Assembly: GCA_041661005.1 (NCBI GenBank)
Contig: JBAZVG010000001.1
Span: 543,515 to 607,514 of the forward strand
Length of the DNA stretch: 64,000 nucleotides
DNA from: Minisyncoccota bacterium
Lineage (GTDB): Bacteria > Patescibacteriota > Minisyncoccia > Phycocordibacterales > UBA9973
Reading direction: 5' to 3'
The notes beneath the pieces are model-generated. The model had not been told where the DNA came from, made no database searches, and was given only the letters and a program-made list of their open reading frames with translations. Positions 42,850-49,516 of the stretch are shown here, piece after piece (positions within the stretch are counted from its first letter, which is position 1; every line of letters begins with the position of its first letter). The position numbers were made by a program, and so were the translations under genes.

Positions 42850-42935
42850 AATTGGGTGCCTATTCGGTTATGCTCCGAATCTAAGAGCTCCACAAGCTCT
42901 TGTGCTACTATTACACCATAGGCACCATGTATTGA
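42850..42935. other. Nested multi-hairpin element between the P-type ATPase and the DUF1003 gene
   Basis: GGTGCCTAT[TTCGG..CCGAA][TAAGAGCT-ccaca-AGCTCTT]...ATAGGCACC: a 9-bp outer stem enclosing two inner hairpins. Confidence 0.3.
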
Positions 42936-43052: not shown

Positions 43053-45716
43053 TTATTTTATTCTAAATAATTTTAGATAATGTTCTTTGGTGAATAAATG
43101 ATTCTTGTTGTGAAGAAGATATTTTGCACCCTCAACCATAGCAATATTAAAAATAAGCCAAAATACGATTAAGGGCGTCCAAGCGAGAGGTAATGGCGCA
43201 ATTTCGAAAATATTTCTAATCGCCGGTATGGTCATCGTAGCGACTAAAATGACAACTGCAATCAAAATACTTATGTTGAGTTTTTTGTTGGCAAATATAG
43301 GATATGAAAAAAGCGGACGATGCAAACTTCTGAAAGAAAAGGAAATAGCAAGGATGTAAGAAGAGAAACAAACGAAAAATATGGAACGAGTGACATCTAA
43401 ATCCAGGCCGATTTGCAATAGAAAATAATACAAAAAGAAAAGAAACAATGAACTTAAAACTCCAACGCCAAAAATAAACACTTTAACATTCTTTGTAAAA
43501 ATAAGATGCGTACTTTCCATCTTTTTGCTTTTTCTTTTTTCTTTATCTATGTCTTCTTCAAATGCAAAAGCGAGCGCAGGCAGACTTCCGGTAAAAAGAT
43601 TCACCCAGATGATTTGGAGCGCGGTAATGGGCAGAGGAAGCCCCATCAAGAGACTCCCCCCAATTACAAACACTTCATCAAGAGAATTAGACATTAGATA
43701 TGTGAATGCTTTTTTGATATTGGAAAGAATTCGGCGTCCTTCATCTATGGCCAGAGAAATAGTTTGAAAATTGTCATCAAGCAATACTAAATCTGCCGCG
43801 CTTTTTGCCACATCACTTCCTGAGCCGAGCGATATGCCTATATCCATCGCCTTGAGCGCCGGAGCATCATTGACACCATCCCCCGTCATAGCCACTACCT
43901 CTCCAAGACTTTGATACAGCCGTCCTATGCGAAGTTTGTCTTCTGGTGTCACTCGGGCGAATATTTTTATTTTAGGAATGATGACAAGTAATTCTTTATC
44001 AGAAAGACTCTTGAGGTCATTGCCGGTAAGTATTTCATCTTCACGCGCTTCCCAATCCAAACTTTTTACCACAGAAAGCGCGGTTCCCATGAGATCTCCT
44101 GTGACTAAAACCATTTTTATGCCATGAGACTCAATATTTTTAATTGCAGCCGGAACTTCTACTCTTATGGGATCATAAAAAACAAACATTCCGAGAAAAT
44201 CAAGTCCCTCCATGTCTTGAATAGAAAAACTTTTTGGATGTTTTTTGGAGATTGTCGCAATACCGATAAGTCTTTTGCCCTCTCTGCTCGTAACATCTAT
44301 CCATTCTTCTAATTTAATATATTCTTCTTTCGAAATATTTGATTTCTTGAGTAAAATATCCGGCGCGCCCATCACCACATACAATCCATTTTTCTCGGCT
44401 ACAGAAAATTTGTTGGTTGAATTAAATGGCAAAACCAAAAAGGAAGAACTGAAAACAATGTCATCAAAAGAAACATTATGCAAGAGGCTTGCTTTGGCGA
44501 TATTGACTTCAAACGGTCGCCCCCGAAAAGTCCATTCTGCCTTGTCTTTATCTCTGTTTTCAATAGAAACGTCAATATTGAGTAATGCCAATTCTAATAA
44601 TTTTTTTTGATCATCAGAAAAAACTTTATGCAATACTTCGTGTTCATCTTTTTTAATTGGATTAGAGAGAAGCGCTGTTCTGGTGTGTATTCCAACGAGT
44701 TGCATATCTGCTAGCGTCAACGTCCCCGTTTTGTCTGTCATTATGAGGGTTGCAGAGCCGAGTGTCTCCGCCGCGGTAAGCTTTCTGACGATTCCCTTCT
44801 TGTTTGCAATACGCTCGGAACCGATCGCTAAAATAACAGTGAGTGCGATAGGCAATGCCTCGGGCACGGCCCCCACAGCAACAGCCGCGGAAAGGACGAG
44901 CATTGGAATCAATGACTCTCCACGCATTATTCCCAAAATTAAAATTCCTATGACAATAATAGAAACTATAAAAAAAATGAACCAAGCCAAACGTCCGATA
45001 CCTCTCTGTAGTGGAGTTTGAGTTCTTTTAGTGGTGGAGACTATCCCGGCAATTTTACCGATTTCAGTTTCATTGCCCGTAGCATAGACAACCGCGGTAG
45101 CATATCCCTGCACCACCAAACTCCCAGCATGAGCAATATTTTTACGTTCCGAAACCGCCGAAGTTATATTGATAGTTATATTATTTTTTTCCACTGGCAG
45201 AGATTCTCCAGTAAGTATTGCTTCGTCTACATTGAGATCAATTTCACTGAGAATGCGCGCATCAGCAGGCACTCTCGAACCGTAAAATAATTTTATTATA
45301 TCCCCGGGCACCAAAAGAGAAGAATCAATTTCTTGTTCTTTTCCGTTACGAATAACTTTAGCCCTATCTTTTATATATGTTTTTAATTTCTCAAGGGTAT
45401 TTTCAGCATGATATTCATGATAAAACCCCAGCACCACATTGAGCAATACCGCAAAGACAATCACAGCTGTGTTCATCCACTCGGCAAGTATGCTGGTGAG
45501 AACAGCCGCGCCAATAAGTAAAAATATAAGCGGACTTAAAAATTGTTTCAAAAAAAGAGAAGGAATATGGATCTTTTCTTTGCTGTGAAAAGTATTATTT
45601 CCGTATTTTTGCAAACGAACTTCTGCCTCTTTGTCAGTTATGCCAACTTGCGTCGAATGTAATTGTTCGACGGTTTCTTTGTCCGATAGTCCCCATGGTT
45701 GCATAGTATTCTGCAT
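43053..45716 (-). CDS. P-type cation-transporting ATPase (P2-type, Ca2+/Mg2+-ATPase-like)
   Basis: 887 aa with TGES, the phosphorylation motif DKTGTLT, MTGDGVNDAPAL, and ten TM helices. Confidence 0.85.
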   Translation of the reverse strand: MQNTMQPWGLSDKETVEQLHSTQVGITDKEAEVRLQKYGNNTFHSKEKIHIPSLFLKQFLSPLIFLLIGAAVLTSILAEWMNTAVIVFAVLLNVVLGFYHEYHAENTLEKLKTYIKDRAKVIRNGKEQEIDSSLLVPGDIIKLFYGSRVPADARILSEIDLNVDEAILTGESLPVEKNNITINITSAVSERKNIAHAGSLVVQGYATAVVYATGNETEIGKIAGIVSTTKRTQTPLQRGIGRLAWFIFFIVSIIVIGILILGIMRGESLIPMLVLSAAVAVGAVPEALPIALTVILAIGSERIANKKGIVRKLTAAETLGSATLIMTDKTGTLTLADMQLVGIHTRTALLSNPIKKDEHEVLHKVFSDDQKKLLELALLNIDVSIENRDKDKAEWTFRGRPFEVNIAKASLLHNVSFDDIVFSSSFLVLPFNSTNKFSVAEKNGLYVVMGAPDILLKKSNISKEEYIKLEEWIDVTSREGKRLIGIATISKKHPKSFSIQDMEGLDFLGMFVFYDPIRVEVPAAIKNIESHGIKMVLVTGDLMGTALSVVKSLDWEAREDEILTGNDLKSLSDKELLVIIPKIKIFARVTPEDKLRIGRLYQSLGEVVAMTGDGVNDAPALKAMDIGISLGSGSDVAKSAADLVLLDDNFQTISLAIDEGRRILSNIKKAFTYLMSNSLDEVFVIGGSLLMGLPLPITALQIIWVNLFTGSLPALAFAFEEDIDKEKRKSKKMESTHLIFTKNVKVFIFGVGVLSSLFLFFLYYFLLQIGLDLDVTRSIFFVCFSSYILAISFSFRSLHRPLFSYPIFANKKLNISILIAVVILVATMTIPAIRNIFEIAPLPLAWTPLIVFWLIFNIAMVEGAKYLLHNKNHLFTKEHYLKLFRIK

Positions 45717-45745
45717 TTTAAATAAATATTCTAGGAATTACTCCA

Positions 45746-46378
45746 TTAGAATTCTTTAAAACAATATTCTTTATCGGGTTCACTTTTTATTAAATTACAA
45801 ATTTGCGAATCATTTTTATTTTTAGCTATTTGCATATAACAACTGGTAATATACACTTGTGCAACTACCTTTTCACATATTCCAGCGTCTCCTTTTTTAA
45901 TCGCGATACCGACATAGCATAAATCTTTCGAAGATAATCCTACTATATTTTCACAAGCTTGTTCGTCACCAGATTCAATAGCGCTTTTCTTTTGAATTTG
46001 AGTTTCACAACTAAATCTATAGTCATCTGATTTTAATGTTTTACAAAGACTTAAATCTTTTATCTTAACTGCAATACCCATAATACATACCTGATTATCA
46101 AATTCAGGCAAGCCATTGCAGGCATTTAAATCTTCTTTCTCTTTAGCAAAATTAGTTATACATGAATATTTAGTTCCATTTGTACTAGTTGTATTGCAAA
46201 TTTCTATATTATTTTCTTGGACAGCGGCTTTATATAAACAATAATTGTACTCAGCAAACGGTAAGTTTTTACTACATCCTGATTTTTTATTATAAACATA
46301 CATACCACCTCCAATTACTAATAATGCGATAATCACTATTAATAGTGGTGCAACGAAACCTTTTTGTGAGTTTTCCAT
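45746..46378 (-). CDS. Hypothetical Cys-rich secreted or membrane-anchored protein
   Basis: 210 aa with an N-terminal TM and repeated ~35-aa Cys-containing units (C..N/D..C..G). Confidence 0.5.
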   Translation of the reverse strand: MENSQKGFVAPLLIVIIALLVIGGGMYVYNKKSGCSKNLPFAEYNYCLYKAAVQENNIEICNTTSTNGTKYSCITNFAKEKEDLNACNGLPEFDNQVCIMGIAVKIKDLSLCKTLKSDDYRFSCETQIQKKSAIESGDEQACENIVGLSSKDLCYVGIAIKKGDAGICEKVVAQVYITSCYMQIAKNKNDSQICNLIKSEPDKEYCFKEF

Positions 46379-46427
46379 AATTGCTATTTTAACATTTTAT
46401 CAACGAAACCCCCAAACGCCTACACTA

Positions 46428-46513
46428 TGGTGCGCGGGAGAGGAATCGCACCTCCACGCCCTTGCGGGCACTACCACCTCAAGGTAGCTCGGCTACTGTT
46501 ACGACACCCGCGC
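46428..46513 (-). tRNA. tRNA-Leu(GAG)-like, class II, atypical D and T loops
   Basis: Minus strand reads GCGCGGG-UG-UCG-UAACAGUAGC-CGA-G-CUACC-UUGAGGU-GGUAG-[UGCCCGCAAGGGCGUG]-GGAGG-UGCGAUU-CCUCU-CCCGCGC-A-CCA. Perfect 7-bp acceptor, encoded CCA, long variable arm. The D-loop lacks GG and the T-loop is UGCGAUU, so it may be a variant or a pseudo-tRNA. Confidence 0.5.
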
Positions 46514-46522
46514 ATGTTTTTG

Positions 46523-47200
46523 TCAATAGTATGTTTGTTGTTGCTTGTAGTTAATTTTTAAAGCCTTCTCTATCTTTAACCTCTTGCGCGACAGACACAT
46601 GACTTTTTTATCATAGTACATTCTTTTAATAATTTCCAGCGCTTCCTTTTTCGCATATTTAAGTTGAAAAGTGCTCCCTTTACCATCTTTAGTTATGTGA
46701 CCATAAATATTTAATCTACACTTGAGTTCTTCTCTTAACCAATCAATGTGTTTTTTGCTGGCAGAAATAAATTCTAAGTAAAACATAAAACTAGATCTCC
46801 ATCTTTTGTCCCAATAGGAATAGAAAGTTCCGTCTCCGTCAAAACACCCTCTTAGAAAATCAAAGAAATATTTAGGTGGCATTAAAACTTTACCAATTGT
46901 TTTAGACTTTTTAGCATACAATCCTATCGACTCTAAAAATCTATATAAAAGCACATCACCAAATTGTACTTTGTGTGATAAATTACCATCATAACCAGAA
47001 ATCGCCTTACCTATTTTAACATCAAGATTAAAACACTTCATGAAGTTATTAATCTGCTCAATTTCTTTAGAAACAAAAGCTATATGGCGATTATCGGGTG
47101 AAAGATTCCCATCCGTAGTTAAAAGTCCAATTGCATACGCAAAATTTTCTGACCATTTTATTTTTACTTTACCTTTTGGCTTTGGTCCCCTCTTCCCCAT
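46523..47200 (-). mobile_element. LAGLIDADG homing endonuclease (double-motif), free-standing
   Basis: 225 aa with two dodecapeptide motifs: FAYAIGLLTTDGNL and FLRGCFDGDGTF. Sits 9 nt upstream of the tRNA-Leu-like gene. The 12-mer TACCTTGAGGTG from the tRNA anticodon arm is repeated just upstream of its start codon (47215-47226), next to an extended -10 TGATATAAT. Confidence 0.8.
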
Positions 47201-47282
47201 TTGTATATTATATCACCTCAAGGTAATAGCGTCTACCAATTATTAGATAAACAAAAAACCACTTTCGTGGGATTATGTTTAT

Positions 47283-47756
47283 TTATTCTGCAACCTTAAC
47301 TTCTTCGGCTGGAGCTTCTTCCTCAACATCTACCTGATTAGTGATAGAACGCATTTTACTGCGAACATCTTTCACCGCCTTGGTGCGGATATAATAAAGC
47401 TTTGATCTGCGAGCGCGAGATCTTTTAGTTATTTCAATTTTATCTATCATCGGAGAATAAAGTGGAAAAATTCTCTCGACTCCGACGCCGGAAGCTACTT
47501 TTCTTACCGTAAAAGTTGCGCCTATTTCTGTCCCATGTTTCCTCCCAAGCACGATACCTTCAAAAGCCTGAAGTCTAAATTTGCCAGCTTCGCCCTTTTT
47601 AGCGTCTCCTTTTTTCTTTTCACCCTTTTTTTCAGTTTTTTCCTCTAAAATCTTGGACCAAATGTTTACAGTATCTCCAGCCTTAAAACTAAGGCTCTTG
47701 CGAGCTTCCATATCCACTGGGCTAAATTTAATATTGGTAACTTTATTTCCTGTCAT
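47283..47756 (-). CDS. rplS: 50S ribosomal protein L19 (with Lys-rich internal insertion and acidic C-terminal tail)
   Basis: 157 aa with ...GKFRLQAFEGIVLGRKHGTEIGATFTVRKVASGVGVERIFPLYSPMIDKIEI..., matching the L19 core. Confidence 0.85.
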   Translation of the reverse strand: MTGNKVTNIKFSPVDMEARKSLSFKAGDTVNIWSKILEEKTEKKGEKKKGDAKKGEAGKFRLQAFEGIVLGRKHGTEIGATFTVRKVASGVGVERIFPLYSPMIDKIEITKRSRARRSKLYYIRTKAVKDVRSKMRSITNQVDVEEEAPAEEVKVAE

Positions 47757-47812
47757 AGTAGAAGCACTTTAGCATAAAAGATTTTACAAATCAAATGCAT
47801 ACGCTGTGTGCT

Positions 47813-49516
47813 TTAGATAAATTCCTGCTGATAGCATTTCTCACAATAAATTATTTCTGGTCTTTCCGGCGCGTAAGAAGTCCTTATCATCTTGTCGCAT
47901 TTTGCGCATGTACGATTGTAGAGTTTCGGCATCTGCAGTTTATCAAAACGAGATTTCTCTCTACATTTCAAACACCGATCAGGAAGAGGTATATTCATTT
48001 TTCTTAGAAGATCAAACTCTAAACCGGCAATCTTATATCTCCTGTCGCAAGTAGTGCAAGAAATAACTTCCTTTAACATCGATTCATCCACTTCGCTTAT
48101 AGTTTCAGGTAAGTCATTGCCAGAAATAGTTGCTTTGCTTTGTTGTTCTACCTCATCATTCCAAAAATATCCGTCTCTTAATGCTTCCTCTTTTGTCTTT
48201 GGACAAAATTTATAAGCCGTAGAATTATTATAAGCAAATTTACCAAAAACTATTTGAGGAAATTCTCCATATGTCCATATTCTACCTTTTTCATCAACAT
48301 ATGGATTTATTTTCATATCTTCAATTATTTTTTCACGTAAAATTTCATACTCTTCCTTTGAATATTCCTTGTTTAGGATGCAATGTTTTTTTCTCTTTAA
48401 ACTCACACAACCGAAATCATTTTTACCAGATCTATTCCAAAGACAGTACTCAACATCTACAACATCTTCGACGCAATATGCAGAGAATTTAACGTTACTG
48501 ACATTTTCACCAACTGTAACAGATTCATAAATAAGTTCAGCATTATTACCCCAACCCGAATAATCCATACAATCTTTTATTGGAGAGACAGTAATAAACT
48601 GGCACCATTTACTATTTTCTGCTTTACTTGCAATATAAATTTCTTTAGAATTTTTAGAATTAAATAAATATTCTCCAGTAACATTTAAATTTAAAGTGTT
48701 GCCTGTATAAAACCTGTAAGGATGTTTTTGCCAAAATTTTTCGGCTTCTTTTTGAACTTTTTTAATTCCAGAACGCGTGTCTAACTTAAATTCTTTTAAT
48801 TTTTCAAAATATTCTTCTTTAGAATACTGAACATTAAAGATCTGGTAGGATGCGCCCCGTAAATTTACACAACCAACACAATACATAGAACTATAGCAAT
48901 TTCTAGAAAACCAAACATCTGTACAGGCGTCGCATTCTTTGGAATAAAAAACGCGATAAGAATCATTCTGACCTATAGATTCGTAACACAATTCTGATTT
49001 AAATATTCTAAATGAATCAGCTGTATCTTTGGCATTATTTAAGAAGGAAGAAAAGTAAACATTTTCACAATAATCAGCCCAGATGGCAAGGGTGCAATTT
49101 TTAGAAAAACCGATAGAATTACTGTAGTCACAATTTTTCAAATTTAAATAACCCGATTCTAATGACGGAAAAGGAACTTTTTCTGAAAGTTGTTTTAATT
49201 GTTCTAAAAAAGAACGGCTAGAATCATAATCCATACCATACTCTGTTCCATCCCAAGAATCTTCCCACCAACATGGCTGGCAATATACCGTAATTTTTTG
49301 TTCTGGTGGATACATTGAAAGAGCACGCTTGCCACACTTGTCGCAATCACGATAAAAAAGATACCAGCCATTGTGACAAGACATGCGTCTGATCATTCGA
49401 CACTCCGGACACCAAGTCGGCGCTGGAACTTTTATTTTCTCGTAAAAATTAAAGTCTTCGGATTCTATTGTGAAATCTTTTTTGCAATTCTGGCATATTT
49501 TATCTTCTGCTTCCAT
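47813..49516 (-). CDS. Hypothetical large multi-zinc-ribbon (Cys-rich) protein
   Basis: 567 aa with at least ten CxxC pairs clustered at both termini (CQNCKK...CPEC; CDKCGK; CTTCDRR...CLKCREK...CAKCDK...CEKC), internal repeats, and no TM. Confidence 0.5.
   Translation of the reverse strand: MEAEDKICQNCKKDFTIESEDFNFYEKIKVPAPTWCPECRMIRRMSCHNGWYLFYRDCDKCGKRALSMYPPEQKITVYCQPCWWEDSWDGTEYGMDYDSSRSFLEQLKQLSEKVPFPSLESGYLNLKNCDYSNSIGFSKNCTLAIWADYCENVYFSSFLNNAKDTADSFRIFKSELCYESIGQNDSYRVFYSKECDACTDVWFSRNCYSSMYCVGCVNLRGASYQIFNVQYSKEEYFEKLKEFKLDTRSGIKKVQKEAEKFWQKHPYRFYTGNTLNLNVTGEYLFNSKNSKEIYIASKAENSKWCQFITVSPIKDCMDYSGWGNNAELIYESVTVGENVSNVKFSAYCVEDVVDVEYCLWNRSGKNDFGCVSLKRKKHCILNKEYSKEEYEILREKIIEDMKINPYVDEKGRIWTYGEFPQIVFGKFAYNNSTAYKFCPKTKEEALRDGYFWNDEVEQQSKATISGNDLPETISEVDESMLKEVISCTTCDRRYKIAGLEFDLLRKMNIPLPDRCLKCREKSRFDKLQMPKLYNRTCAKCDKMIRTSYAPERPEIIYCEKCYQQEFI

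Follow-up and report, generated by a model that had tools for sequence, protein, structure and literature searches.

Why should a gene for a LAGLIDADG homing endonuclease stand on its own immediately before a transfer RNA (tRNA) gene of unusual sequence, and why should twelve nucleotides of that tRNA recur just ahead of the endonuclease start codon? These questions are raised by a locus in a 64,000-nucleotide (nt) stretch of DNA from a Minisyncoccota bacterium (assembly GCA_041661005.1, contig JBAZVG010000001.1, positions 543,515 to 607,514), referred to here as the window, in which the endonuclease gene lies between rplS, encoding ribosomal protein L19, and a tRNA-Leu(GAG) gene. We judge it probable that the endonuclease gene is a free-standing element which needs neither intron nor intein to spread and is specifically directed at the rplS/tRNA-Leu(GAG) junction of Paceibacteria (Patescibacteria/candidate phyla radiation, CPR). 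Two observations carry this reading: the gene is present sporadically and always at the same site, and the standard form of the tRNA-Leu(GAG) gene, which the enzyme would cut, was never found beside it. The features of the window on which the argument draws, including the endonuclease open reading frame (ORF), are as follows.

47283..47756, minus strand: rplS (ribosomal protein L19; Pfam Ribosomal_L19, E = 5e-30), left neighbour of the element
46519..47282, minus strand: segment missing from the empty site of locus L013, made of the hairpin, the tRNA-derived piece, the promoter and the endonuclease ORF; ends uncertain by about 11 nt
47250..47272, minus strand: hairpin CCAC-GAAA-GTGG with a T-run, 3′ of rplS, terminator-like (read from the sequence and folded)
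47214..47241, minus strand: 28-nt tRNA-Leu(GAG)-derived piece, AATTGGTAGACGCTATTACCTTGAGGTG, matching the standard allele TGGTAGACGCACTACCTTGAGGTG of gene-free loci
47207..47235, minus strand: predicted sigma-70-type promoter, largely made of the tRNA-derived piece (promoter scan)
46523..47200, minus strand: free-standing two-domain LAGLIDADG homing endonuclease gene, 225 amino acids (ORF list, Pfam LAGLIDADG_3)
46521..46526, minus strand: TTGACA motif holding the endonuclease stop codon, 7 nt before the tRNA 5′ end
46428..46513, minus strand: resident tRNA-Leu(GAG), non-standard allele with an A18/G55 elbow, G26 and U44 (ARAGORN)

From rplS onwards the locus reads hairpin and T-run, AATTGGTAGACGCTATTACCTTGAGGTG fused to TGATATAAT, 6 bases, the ATG and the ORF, followed by a gap of 9 nt (46514-46522) between the stop codon and the tRNA-Leu(GAG) gene. 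Every feature named in a preliminary description of this DNA, namely the ORF, the tRNA, a repeated 12-mer, an extended -10 box, the D- and T-loops and the lack of an intron, was found where it had been placed. The element is not inside an intron or intein, because group I and group II intron models gave no match at E ≤ 1 in an Rfam scan of positions 45500-48500, the -10 box lies 6 nt upstream of the ORF and a complete tRNA follows 9 nt downstream. The hairpin at 47250-47272 was not called by a terminator scan since its stem is under 5 base pairs (bp); a hairpin and T-run occupy the same position in most related gene-bearing loci, with a hairpin sequence that differs among them.

The first LAGLIDADG motif of the encoded protein, AIGLLTTDGNL, occupies residues 23-33, and Pfam LAGLIDADG_3 matched residues 115-186 with 29.4 bits (cut-off 22.5). 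Both catalytic aspartates, D30 (AIGLLTTDG) and D123 (LRGCFDGDG), were invariant among 40 homologues, and a basic N-terminal tail (KRGPKPKGK) is conserved with G5 and P8 invariant. Database searches returned a PHROG endonuclease family (E = 3e-21) and, in the PDB, the archaeal intron endonuclease I-Tsp061I (2dch; E = 8e-5, 19% identity). An AlphaFold2 model built from the 40 homologues reached a predicted local distance difference test (pLDDT) score of 91.5 and a predicted template modelling (pTM) score of 0.88, and its best Foldseek match was again 2dch (E = 3.6e-12, template modelling (TM) score 0.63-0.69). The top 50 Foldseek matches were all LAGLIDADG proteins, the best being I-Tsp061I, I-AniI, intein endonuclease domains, WhiA, I-DmoI and I-SceI. 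In the model the chain is predicted to adopt the doubled alpha-beta-beta-alpha-beta-beta-alpha fold with a DNA-binding saddle. Judged from its sequence and predicted structure, the 225-residue protein is a bona fide two-domain monomeric LAGLIDADG endonuclease, for which site-specific cleavage is predicted. Like I-Tsp061I and I-DmoI it is a single chain of about 200-225 residues with two LAGLIDADG motifs, each bearing a catalytic acidic residue; these enzymes are its best sequence and fold matches, yet the identity is only 19%, and they are encoded in archaeal ribosomal RNA (rRNA) introns and target rRNA genes, whereas the window gene is free-standing and has the basic N-terminal tail. The ratio of non-synonymous to synonymous substitution (dN/dS) was 0.09-0.23 for the closest available relatives, with synonymous sites near saturation (dS about 1-1.4); by this measure the gene is under purifying selection, with both catalytic aspartates kept. 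Relatives are numerous, with 4028 matches in a 90%-identity protein database and 2602 cluster representatives in another search.

In order to place the gene in context, three sets of loci were compared: 80 species-representative loci retrieved via L19, in 71 of which the tRNA could be scored; 80 metagenomic loci retrieved via endonuclease similarity; and several long contigs. All gene copies with enough flanking sequence, about 90, were ordered rplS, endonuclease gene, tRNA-Leu(GAG), and a divergent clade with 37-40% identity to the window protein occupied the same site between rplS and tRNA-Leu(GAG). The earlier proposal of a free-standing homing endonuclease gene tied to this tRNA is thereby borne out, and the unrelated contexts that would have spoken against it were not encountered among these copies. 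Within the L19-based sample the common state was rplS followed directly by tRNA-Leu(GAG), the endonuclease gene being present in 9 of 71 loci, and the window's nearest rplS relatives (89%) are without it. Endonuclease identity was scarcely related to L19 identity (Spearman 0.23), its mean staying at 57-68% throughout L19 identities of 40-100%. A fixed site, sporadic presence and uncoupled divergence are together the signature of a mobile element and not of a vertically inherited host gene, and from these comparisons we regard the gene, with high confidence, as a mobile element homing to one site. A scan of viral contigs found no relative, and a phage origin was rejected on this ground.

These data bear directly on an alternative which we consider unlikely, namely that the protein has been domesticated by its host, for instance as a regulator of rplS and the tRNA that binds a tRNA-like operator in the manner of WhiA, and has been passed on vertically with many losses. 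Such a role would fit the invariable locus, a dN/dS of about 0.1, the thousands of homologues, the seeming dependence of the tRNA on the gene's promoter (discussed below) and the appearance of WhiA among the fold matches. It is at odds, however, with the restriction of the gene to 9 of the 71 species representatives and its absence from the closest relatives, with an endonuclease divergence uncoupled from that of L19, and with the existence of degenerate copies, such as that of L063, which is frameshifted. Two findings on the tRNA described below also oppose it: the tRNA allele has been replaced between neighbours that are 94% identical, and the standard allele is excluded from carriers. Lastly, both catalytic aspartates of the window family are invariant, while WhiA has lost its catalytic aspartates.

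An empty site is seen in L013, which is gene-free and has 86% L19 identity to the window. Similarity between the two ends at the rplS stop codon, restarts 5 nt before the tRNA and runs on for 600 nt downstream. The rplS-tRNA spacer of L013 is 20 nt long and includes a TATAAT box; in the window an insert of about 764 bp replaces about 15 nt of it, and the two tRNAs differ by one base. Judged from this alignment, the insertion point is the rplS/tRNA spacer and not the anticodon. The earlier suggestion of homing at the anticodon region thus fails for the window itself, although as the origin of the upstream repeat it gains support from another locus, L134, as described below. An integrase-type island targeting the tRNA gene, with the partial duplication as its attachment (att) sites, might be considered here, as integration at tRNA genes is a classic pattern and the insert is flanked by a repeat of part of the tRNA. 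Neither the ORF list nor Pfam revealed an integrase or recombinase in the 764-bp insert, the sole ORF of which is the LAGLIDADG nuclease, and the repeat is an internal 5′ part of the tRNA with an indel instead of an exact 3′-end copy; we hold this explanation to be very improbable.

The repeated 12-mer, TACCTTGAGGTG, occurs exactly twice in the window, at 46475-46486 (tRNA nt 28-39) and at 47214-47225, where it abuts the extended -10 sequence TGATATAAT. Shuffled sequences contained a mean of 0.09 matches, and two or more matches in 1 of 100 shuffles. Similarity extends beyond the 12-mer, the 28-nt piece AATTGGTAGACGCTATTACCTTGAGGTG being made, in order, of a D-loop with GG, the 3′ strand of the D-stem, an extra base, the 5′ strand of the anticodon stem, the anticodon loop and nt 39. 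It equals nt 14-39 of the standard tRNA save for the extra base (CGC-TA-YNNCC in the piece against CGC-A-CTACC) and variable nt 27-29, and it covers the -35 box and spacer of the predicted promoter; the commonest gene-free allele reads ...GAAACTGGTAGACGCACTACCTTGAGGTGGTAGCG... About 75 of 88 unique gene-bearing loci have the piece in the form AATTGGTAGACGCTAYNNCCTTGAGGTGATATAAT-N6-ATG; it hardly varies outside the G18 position (G or A) and nt 27-30, the latter being the presumed centre of the site, while the flanking bases are variable. Given a dS of at least 1 in the adjacent ORF, this invariance points to selection. Automated patterns for ORF intactness and -10 spacing proved crude, and the locus sequences themselves were relied on instead.

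Across loci the sequence of the piece is independent of that of the resident tRNA, and among gene-bearing loci no association was found between the base at its G18 position and the type of the resident D-loop. The exact 12-mer overlap in the window exists because the resident tRNA keeps the common CTACC anticodon stem. The preliminary description had seen in the repeat a partial duplication of the neighbouring tRNA. Derivation from a tRNA, as opposed to a generic promoter element, was supported by the conservation of the piece, but the neighbour is not its source: the piece carries the GG D-loop of the standard allele, which the resident tRNA lacks. A chance 12-mer or generic promoter element combined with an unrelated random insertion has, in our estimate, a negligible probability. 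Pairs of identical 12-mers are frequent in 64 kb of AT-rich DNA and the repeat overlaps a promoter-like site, but the pattern occurs at two places only in the window, the piece consists of the D-arm and anticodon arm of the standard tRNA-Leu, and the insertion site is identical in every locus. It is the conservation of the 28-nt piece with the same geometry in about 75 related loci, more than the single-window statistic, that speaks against chance, and on this conservation a chance repeat was rejected.

The origin of the piece is illustrated by L134, which has a complete tRNA 5′ half, GCGCGGGTGGCGGAACTGGTAGACGC-TA-TGTCCTTGAGGG, ahead of its endonuclease gene. This half, GCGCGGG-TG-GCG-GAACTGGTAGA-CGC-TA-TGTCC-TTGAGGG, stands behind an apparent old tRNA promoter and is accompanied by a different tRNA, of the A18/G55 type, downstream of the gene. 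From this intact half we infer that the piece began as the 5′ half of a genuine tRNA-Leu gene and was then displaced, and L134 likewise supports insertion into the anticodon arm as its origin. Overall, the piece appears to be a remnant of the standard tRNA-Leu(GAG) gene reused as a predicted promoter.

The same observations might suggest a relic of a group I intron-encoded endonuclease in the tRNA-Leu anticodon loop, as in cyanobacteria, with the piece as the 5′ exon and the intron RNA decayed or missed by the search. The piece does end directly after the anticodon loop, L134 has the full 5′ half, and bacterial tRNA-Leu introns are a known class (PMC3984707). Such an origin nevertheless seems highly unlikely to us. 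No intron model matched at E ≤ 1 in 45500-48500, and the stretch from the -10 box to the tRNA is filled by the ORF save for 6 nt in front of it and 0-25 nt behind it, leaving no space for a ribozyme core. Every locus has a complete tRNA downstream that folds on its own, and in nearly all loci the piece is without the acceptor and D-stem 5′ strand, so that ligation of the exons would give no tRNA. With neither a ribozyme core nor ligatable exons, assignment of the gene to the group I intron-encoded endonucleases of tRNA-Leu was rejected. A split or permuted tRNA with the piece as 5′ exon was also dismissed, as the piece is without the acceptor and D-stem 5′ strand and the downstream tRNA is complete.

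Which sequence does the enzyme cut? The standard allele, GGTAGACG[CT]ACTACCTTGAGG, was absent from all 84 loci with the gene but present in 34 of the 62 without it (Fisher p = 1.7e-16); in the species-representative sample alone the counts were 0/9 against 34/62 (p = 0.0024), and both statistics ignore phylogeny. Because the standard allele is absent beside the gene, the standard tRNA-Leu(GAG) gene is, with moderate confidence, the predicted cleavage target. LAGLIDADG target sites usually consist of two conserved ten-base halves round a variable centre, a layout that our model assumes here. Of the 62 gene-free loci 39 have A26, against 2 of the 84 with the gene. Those two, L109 and L117, have intact ORFs and differ from the standard allele only in the D-loop, with GGT changed to GGC or GGCT. 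In 73 loci the resident tRNA never equalled its own upstream piece over nt 17-25. Exchange of the tRNA gene itself is apparent from L018, which has the endonuclease gene, and L029, which does not: their rplS DNA is 94% identical and their downstream flanks about 93%, whereas their tRNAs are about 72% identical, L029 carrying the standard allele and L018 a variant. As read from these sequences, the whole tRNA gene has been exchanged along with the endonuclease gene, a pattern of co-conversion in which the incoming allele would be the resistant one.

Several gene-free loci have other features in this region. In L009, L029, L034, L042 and L044 the spacer that separates rplS from the standard tRNA-Leu holds a conserved stretch of about 57 nt, gcccccgatcgcctgctcgtaaactcgcatcggcgattccgaaacggattgggggc, with complementary ends (for example L029 3415-3475). 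In L075 (3503-3597) the leader and tRNA nt 1-17 (atctGCGCGGGTGGCGAAATT) are repeated 93 nt upstream, the repeat breaking off just before GGTAGAC, and the spacer upstream of the L045 tRNA holds a mini acceptor-stem relic; these partial tRNA-Leu duplications may be scars of breaks or of past insertions at the tRNA. Finally, the rplS-tRNA-Leu spacer of L053 (3400-3760), which has the standard tRNA allele, contains a 78-amino-acid ORF (MFYVYILKSQNVNKFYVGQTDNLDRRLEEHN...) that is GIY-YIG-like, the family being assigned by eye.

The atypical tRNA itself was called as tRNA-Leu(GAG) by ARAGORN (46428-46513, minus strand). It has a perfect 7-bp acceptor stem, a CCA end, a D-loop, UAACAGUAGC, without GG and a T-loop UGCGAUU, and its minimum free energy fold is a full class II cloverleaf. 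It had no RF00005 match over the Rfam threshold, its best match being the related tRNA-Sec model with 24 bits. With the Rfam tRNA model the standard allele scored 50.5 bits, whereas A18/G55 alleles fell below E = 0.5. Comparison of 146 rplS-adjacent tRNA-Leu(GAG) genes showed a D-loop GG with a T-loop TTC in 123 and AG with TGC in 23, with no exceptions, so that the elbow covaries as G18:U55 or A18:G55. The loci concerned include L003, L012, L013, L018, L026, L030, L036, L048 and L079. The window's tRNA-His (42854-42925) has the same AG D-loop and G55 T-loop, and the window tRNA-Leu sequence is also kept in L013 and L093. Such perfect elbow covariation makes the resident tRNA look like a functional variant and not a product of decay; we regard it as functional on sequence grounds, its oddity being a lineage trait instead of damage or rebuilding.

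The one-base difference from the tRNA of gene-free L013 indicates that the odd tRNA is native to the lineage. The view that its D- and T-loops were products of the insertion was accordingly abandoned: gene-free L013, L012, L030 and L036 all carry A18/G55 alleles. It had also been suggested that the downstream copy was the functional or a rebuilt gene. The first part stands, in that it is a working allele which is presumably resistant to cleavage, while rebuilding does not agree with a trait that is also found in gene-free lineages. The A18/G55 trait occurs in 19 of 84 carriers and 4 of 62 non-carriers, a count that ignores phylogeny; as a nuclease-driven escape mutation it is a weakened candidate, since the window's tRNA-His shows it as well. 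Nor was support found for the idea that the resident tRNA and the endonuclease gene travel as a stable unit, as tRNA similarity tracks neither endonuclease nor L19 similarity.

On the basis of these comparisons, we propose that the enzyme would cut the DNA of the standard tRNA-Leu(GAG) gene between the D-loop and the anticodon loop, at about nt 17-39, with nt 25-28 central. The break would be repaired from a gene-carrying genome, and the endonuclease gene and a resistant tRNA allele would be copied in together. As the displaced 5′ half of a once-invaded standard tRNA-Leu gene, the 28-nt piece would escape cutting by virtue of the extra base at the presumed centre of the site and the missing 3′ continuation, and it would provide the -35 box and spacer of a promoter. 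More specifically, the promoter scan predicted TAGACG-17-TATAAT with a TG extension (10/12 matches, 47235..47207), with the -35 box TAGACG at 47230-47235 and the -10 box TATAAT at 47207-47212. The -10 box is conserved across loci together with its spacing from the ATG, which in most gene-bearing loci is exactly 6 nt and includes no Shine-Dalgarno sequence (window 47198-47212). The 6-nt spacing predicts that the endonuclease messenger RNA (mRNA) is probably leaderless and, taken with the absent Shine-Dalgarno sequence, suggests leaderless translation in these bacteria.

This promoter would drive both the endonuclease mRNA and the downstream tRNA. Across loci the tRNA starts 0-25 nt after the endonuclease stop codon or overlaps the end of the ORF, and RNase P probably frees it from a transcript that it shares with the mRNA; given such a transcript, the tRNA would depend on the promoter of the element. 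In L018, L025, L088, L102, L122 and L156 the ORF extends 15-36 nt into the tRNA gene, an overlap in which processing by RNase P could strip the stop codon from the mRNA and limit endonuclease levels. In about 28 of 84 gene-bearing loci the tRNA is preceded, 7-9 nt away, by a TTGACA(AAA) motif, the reading frame of which differs among loci; those with TTGACA include L005, L048, L063, L087, L089, L093-L095, L117 and L141. Gene-free L024 carries it as well, which may be the footprint of a gene loss. As the -35 box of a tRNA-internal promoter TTGACA is unconvincing, the corresponding -10 positions being without the critical A at -11.

The invariance of the piece exceeds what a promoter needs. The divergent clade keeps AATTAGTAGAC, also where it is not at -35 distance, in the form AATT[A/G]GTA[G/T]AC only and two bases from the -10 box, and a -35 role alone therefore cannot explain the conservation. 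For this reason the piece may also be an operator for self-repression, similar to that of I-TevI, a left homology arm that is carried along for entry into new tRNA-Leu genes, or both; these putative roles are put forward with low to moderate confidence. A mimic of the homing site that overlaps the gene's own promoter would be present here only if the standard tRNA gene is the homing site. A more tentative extension, which we think possible though not the likelier outcome, is a long arms race between the endonuclease and an essential tRNA, in which a non-cleavable copy of the target serves as promoter, operator and homology arm. Escape alleles altered in the D-arm, at nt 26/44 and in the anticodon stem would then explain the diversity of this tRNA in Paceibacteria, and the target copy would permit invasion of any standard tRNA-Leu gene whatever its flanks, with L134 as a fresh example. 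Reliance of the tRNA on the element's promoter would in turn hinder loss of the element.

Several points weigh against homing by cleavage of the standard tRNA gene, the reading we favour. The gene-free loci were chosen by L19 similarity and most gene-bearing ones by endonuclease similarity, so that the sampling frames differ, and the association between allele and gene takes no account of phylogeny. About 12 of 88 loci are without the piece, at least 5 of them with intact ORFs, which means that it is not indispensable. Resident tRNA similarity does not track endonuclease similarity, as would a unit stably linked over long times, and strong purifying selection on a selfish gene is also compatible with a function beneficial to the host. 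Compared with L013, the resident tRNA is unchanged and the insertion lies in the spacer; neither a gain via tRNA cleavage in the window lineage nor a loss in L013 can be demonstrated. The target, the cut position, the operator role and the leaderless start are moreover all inferred.

Comparison with known systems places the proposed element closest in behaviour to the free-standing endonucleases of T-even phages (SegA-G and MobE, with SegB in the T4 tRNA cluster), which spread by intronless homing (PMC2988022). Like those genes, the window gene lies outside any intron or intein, is served by a promoter of its own in an upstream spacer and turns up sporadically at one fixed site with conserved genes on either side; co-conversion extends to flanking markers, which here include the tRNA allele, and carrier genomes hold a variant of the target that is presumably immune. 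SegB, too, is located in a region of tRNA genes and acts on it. The T-even enzymes, however, are of the GIY-YIG or HNH type and not LAGLIDADG, and the window element, which has no relative among the viral contigs scanned, is chromosomal in ultra-small cellular bacteria. Its presumed target also differs in lying inside an essential cellular tRNA gene, a conserved fragment of which is carried along. In the autorepression of I-TevI, the operator resembles the homing site and lies over the promoter of the endonuclease gene (PMC2988022). Here too the -35 box and spacer of the endonuclease promoter are covered by a close look-alike of the presumed homing site, which differs from that site in a way expected to block cutting, with its central extra base and missing 3′ continuation. 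The enzyme family is a different one, binding and repression are putative for the window element, and L134 suggests that the mimic is more than a look-alike, evidently being what is physically left of a target gene after invasion.

Within the CPR, LAGLIDADG enzymes such as I-ShaI are mostly single-domain homodimers encoded in group-I-like introns of 16S and 23S rRNA genes (PMC11270868), and the main text of that paper makes no mention of tRNA. The window enzyme shares with them the host radiation, the superfamily and site-specific homing into highly conserved RNA genes, but is double-domain, without an intron and linked to a tRNA. With group I introns of tRNA-Leu(UAA) it shares an interruption of tRNA-Leu at the anticodon region, the likely ancestral event behind the piece; unlike them it has no ribozyme core, needs no splicing, concerns another isoacceptor and is followed by a complete tRNA. 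A literature search found no published description of the element. Beyond rplS, the window contains a 567-amino-acid cysteine-rich ORF (47813-49516, minus strand) with a weak C-terminal treble-clef zinc-finger match (22 bits, below the cut-off), which is otherwise unannotated.

Homing endonucleases of the CPR have been described inside rRNA introns (PMC11270868); if the present reading is true, there would be a second, intron-less route in these bacteria that is aimed at a tRNA gene, taken by an element that is abundant, with its 4028 database matches. The compact, naturally diversified two-domain scaffold of 225 amino acids, a candidate target of 22-24 bp and many natural, presumably resistant variants of it would be at hand for studies of specificity. 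The element would also account for the variability of the rplS-adjacent tRNA-Leu(GAG) and for alleles that escape standard tRNA models. It would be a natural case of a selfish nuclease shaping the sequence of an essential tRNA gene, and one in which what is left of the invaded gene could serve the invader anew, as a promoter and possibly also as an operator.

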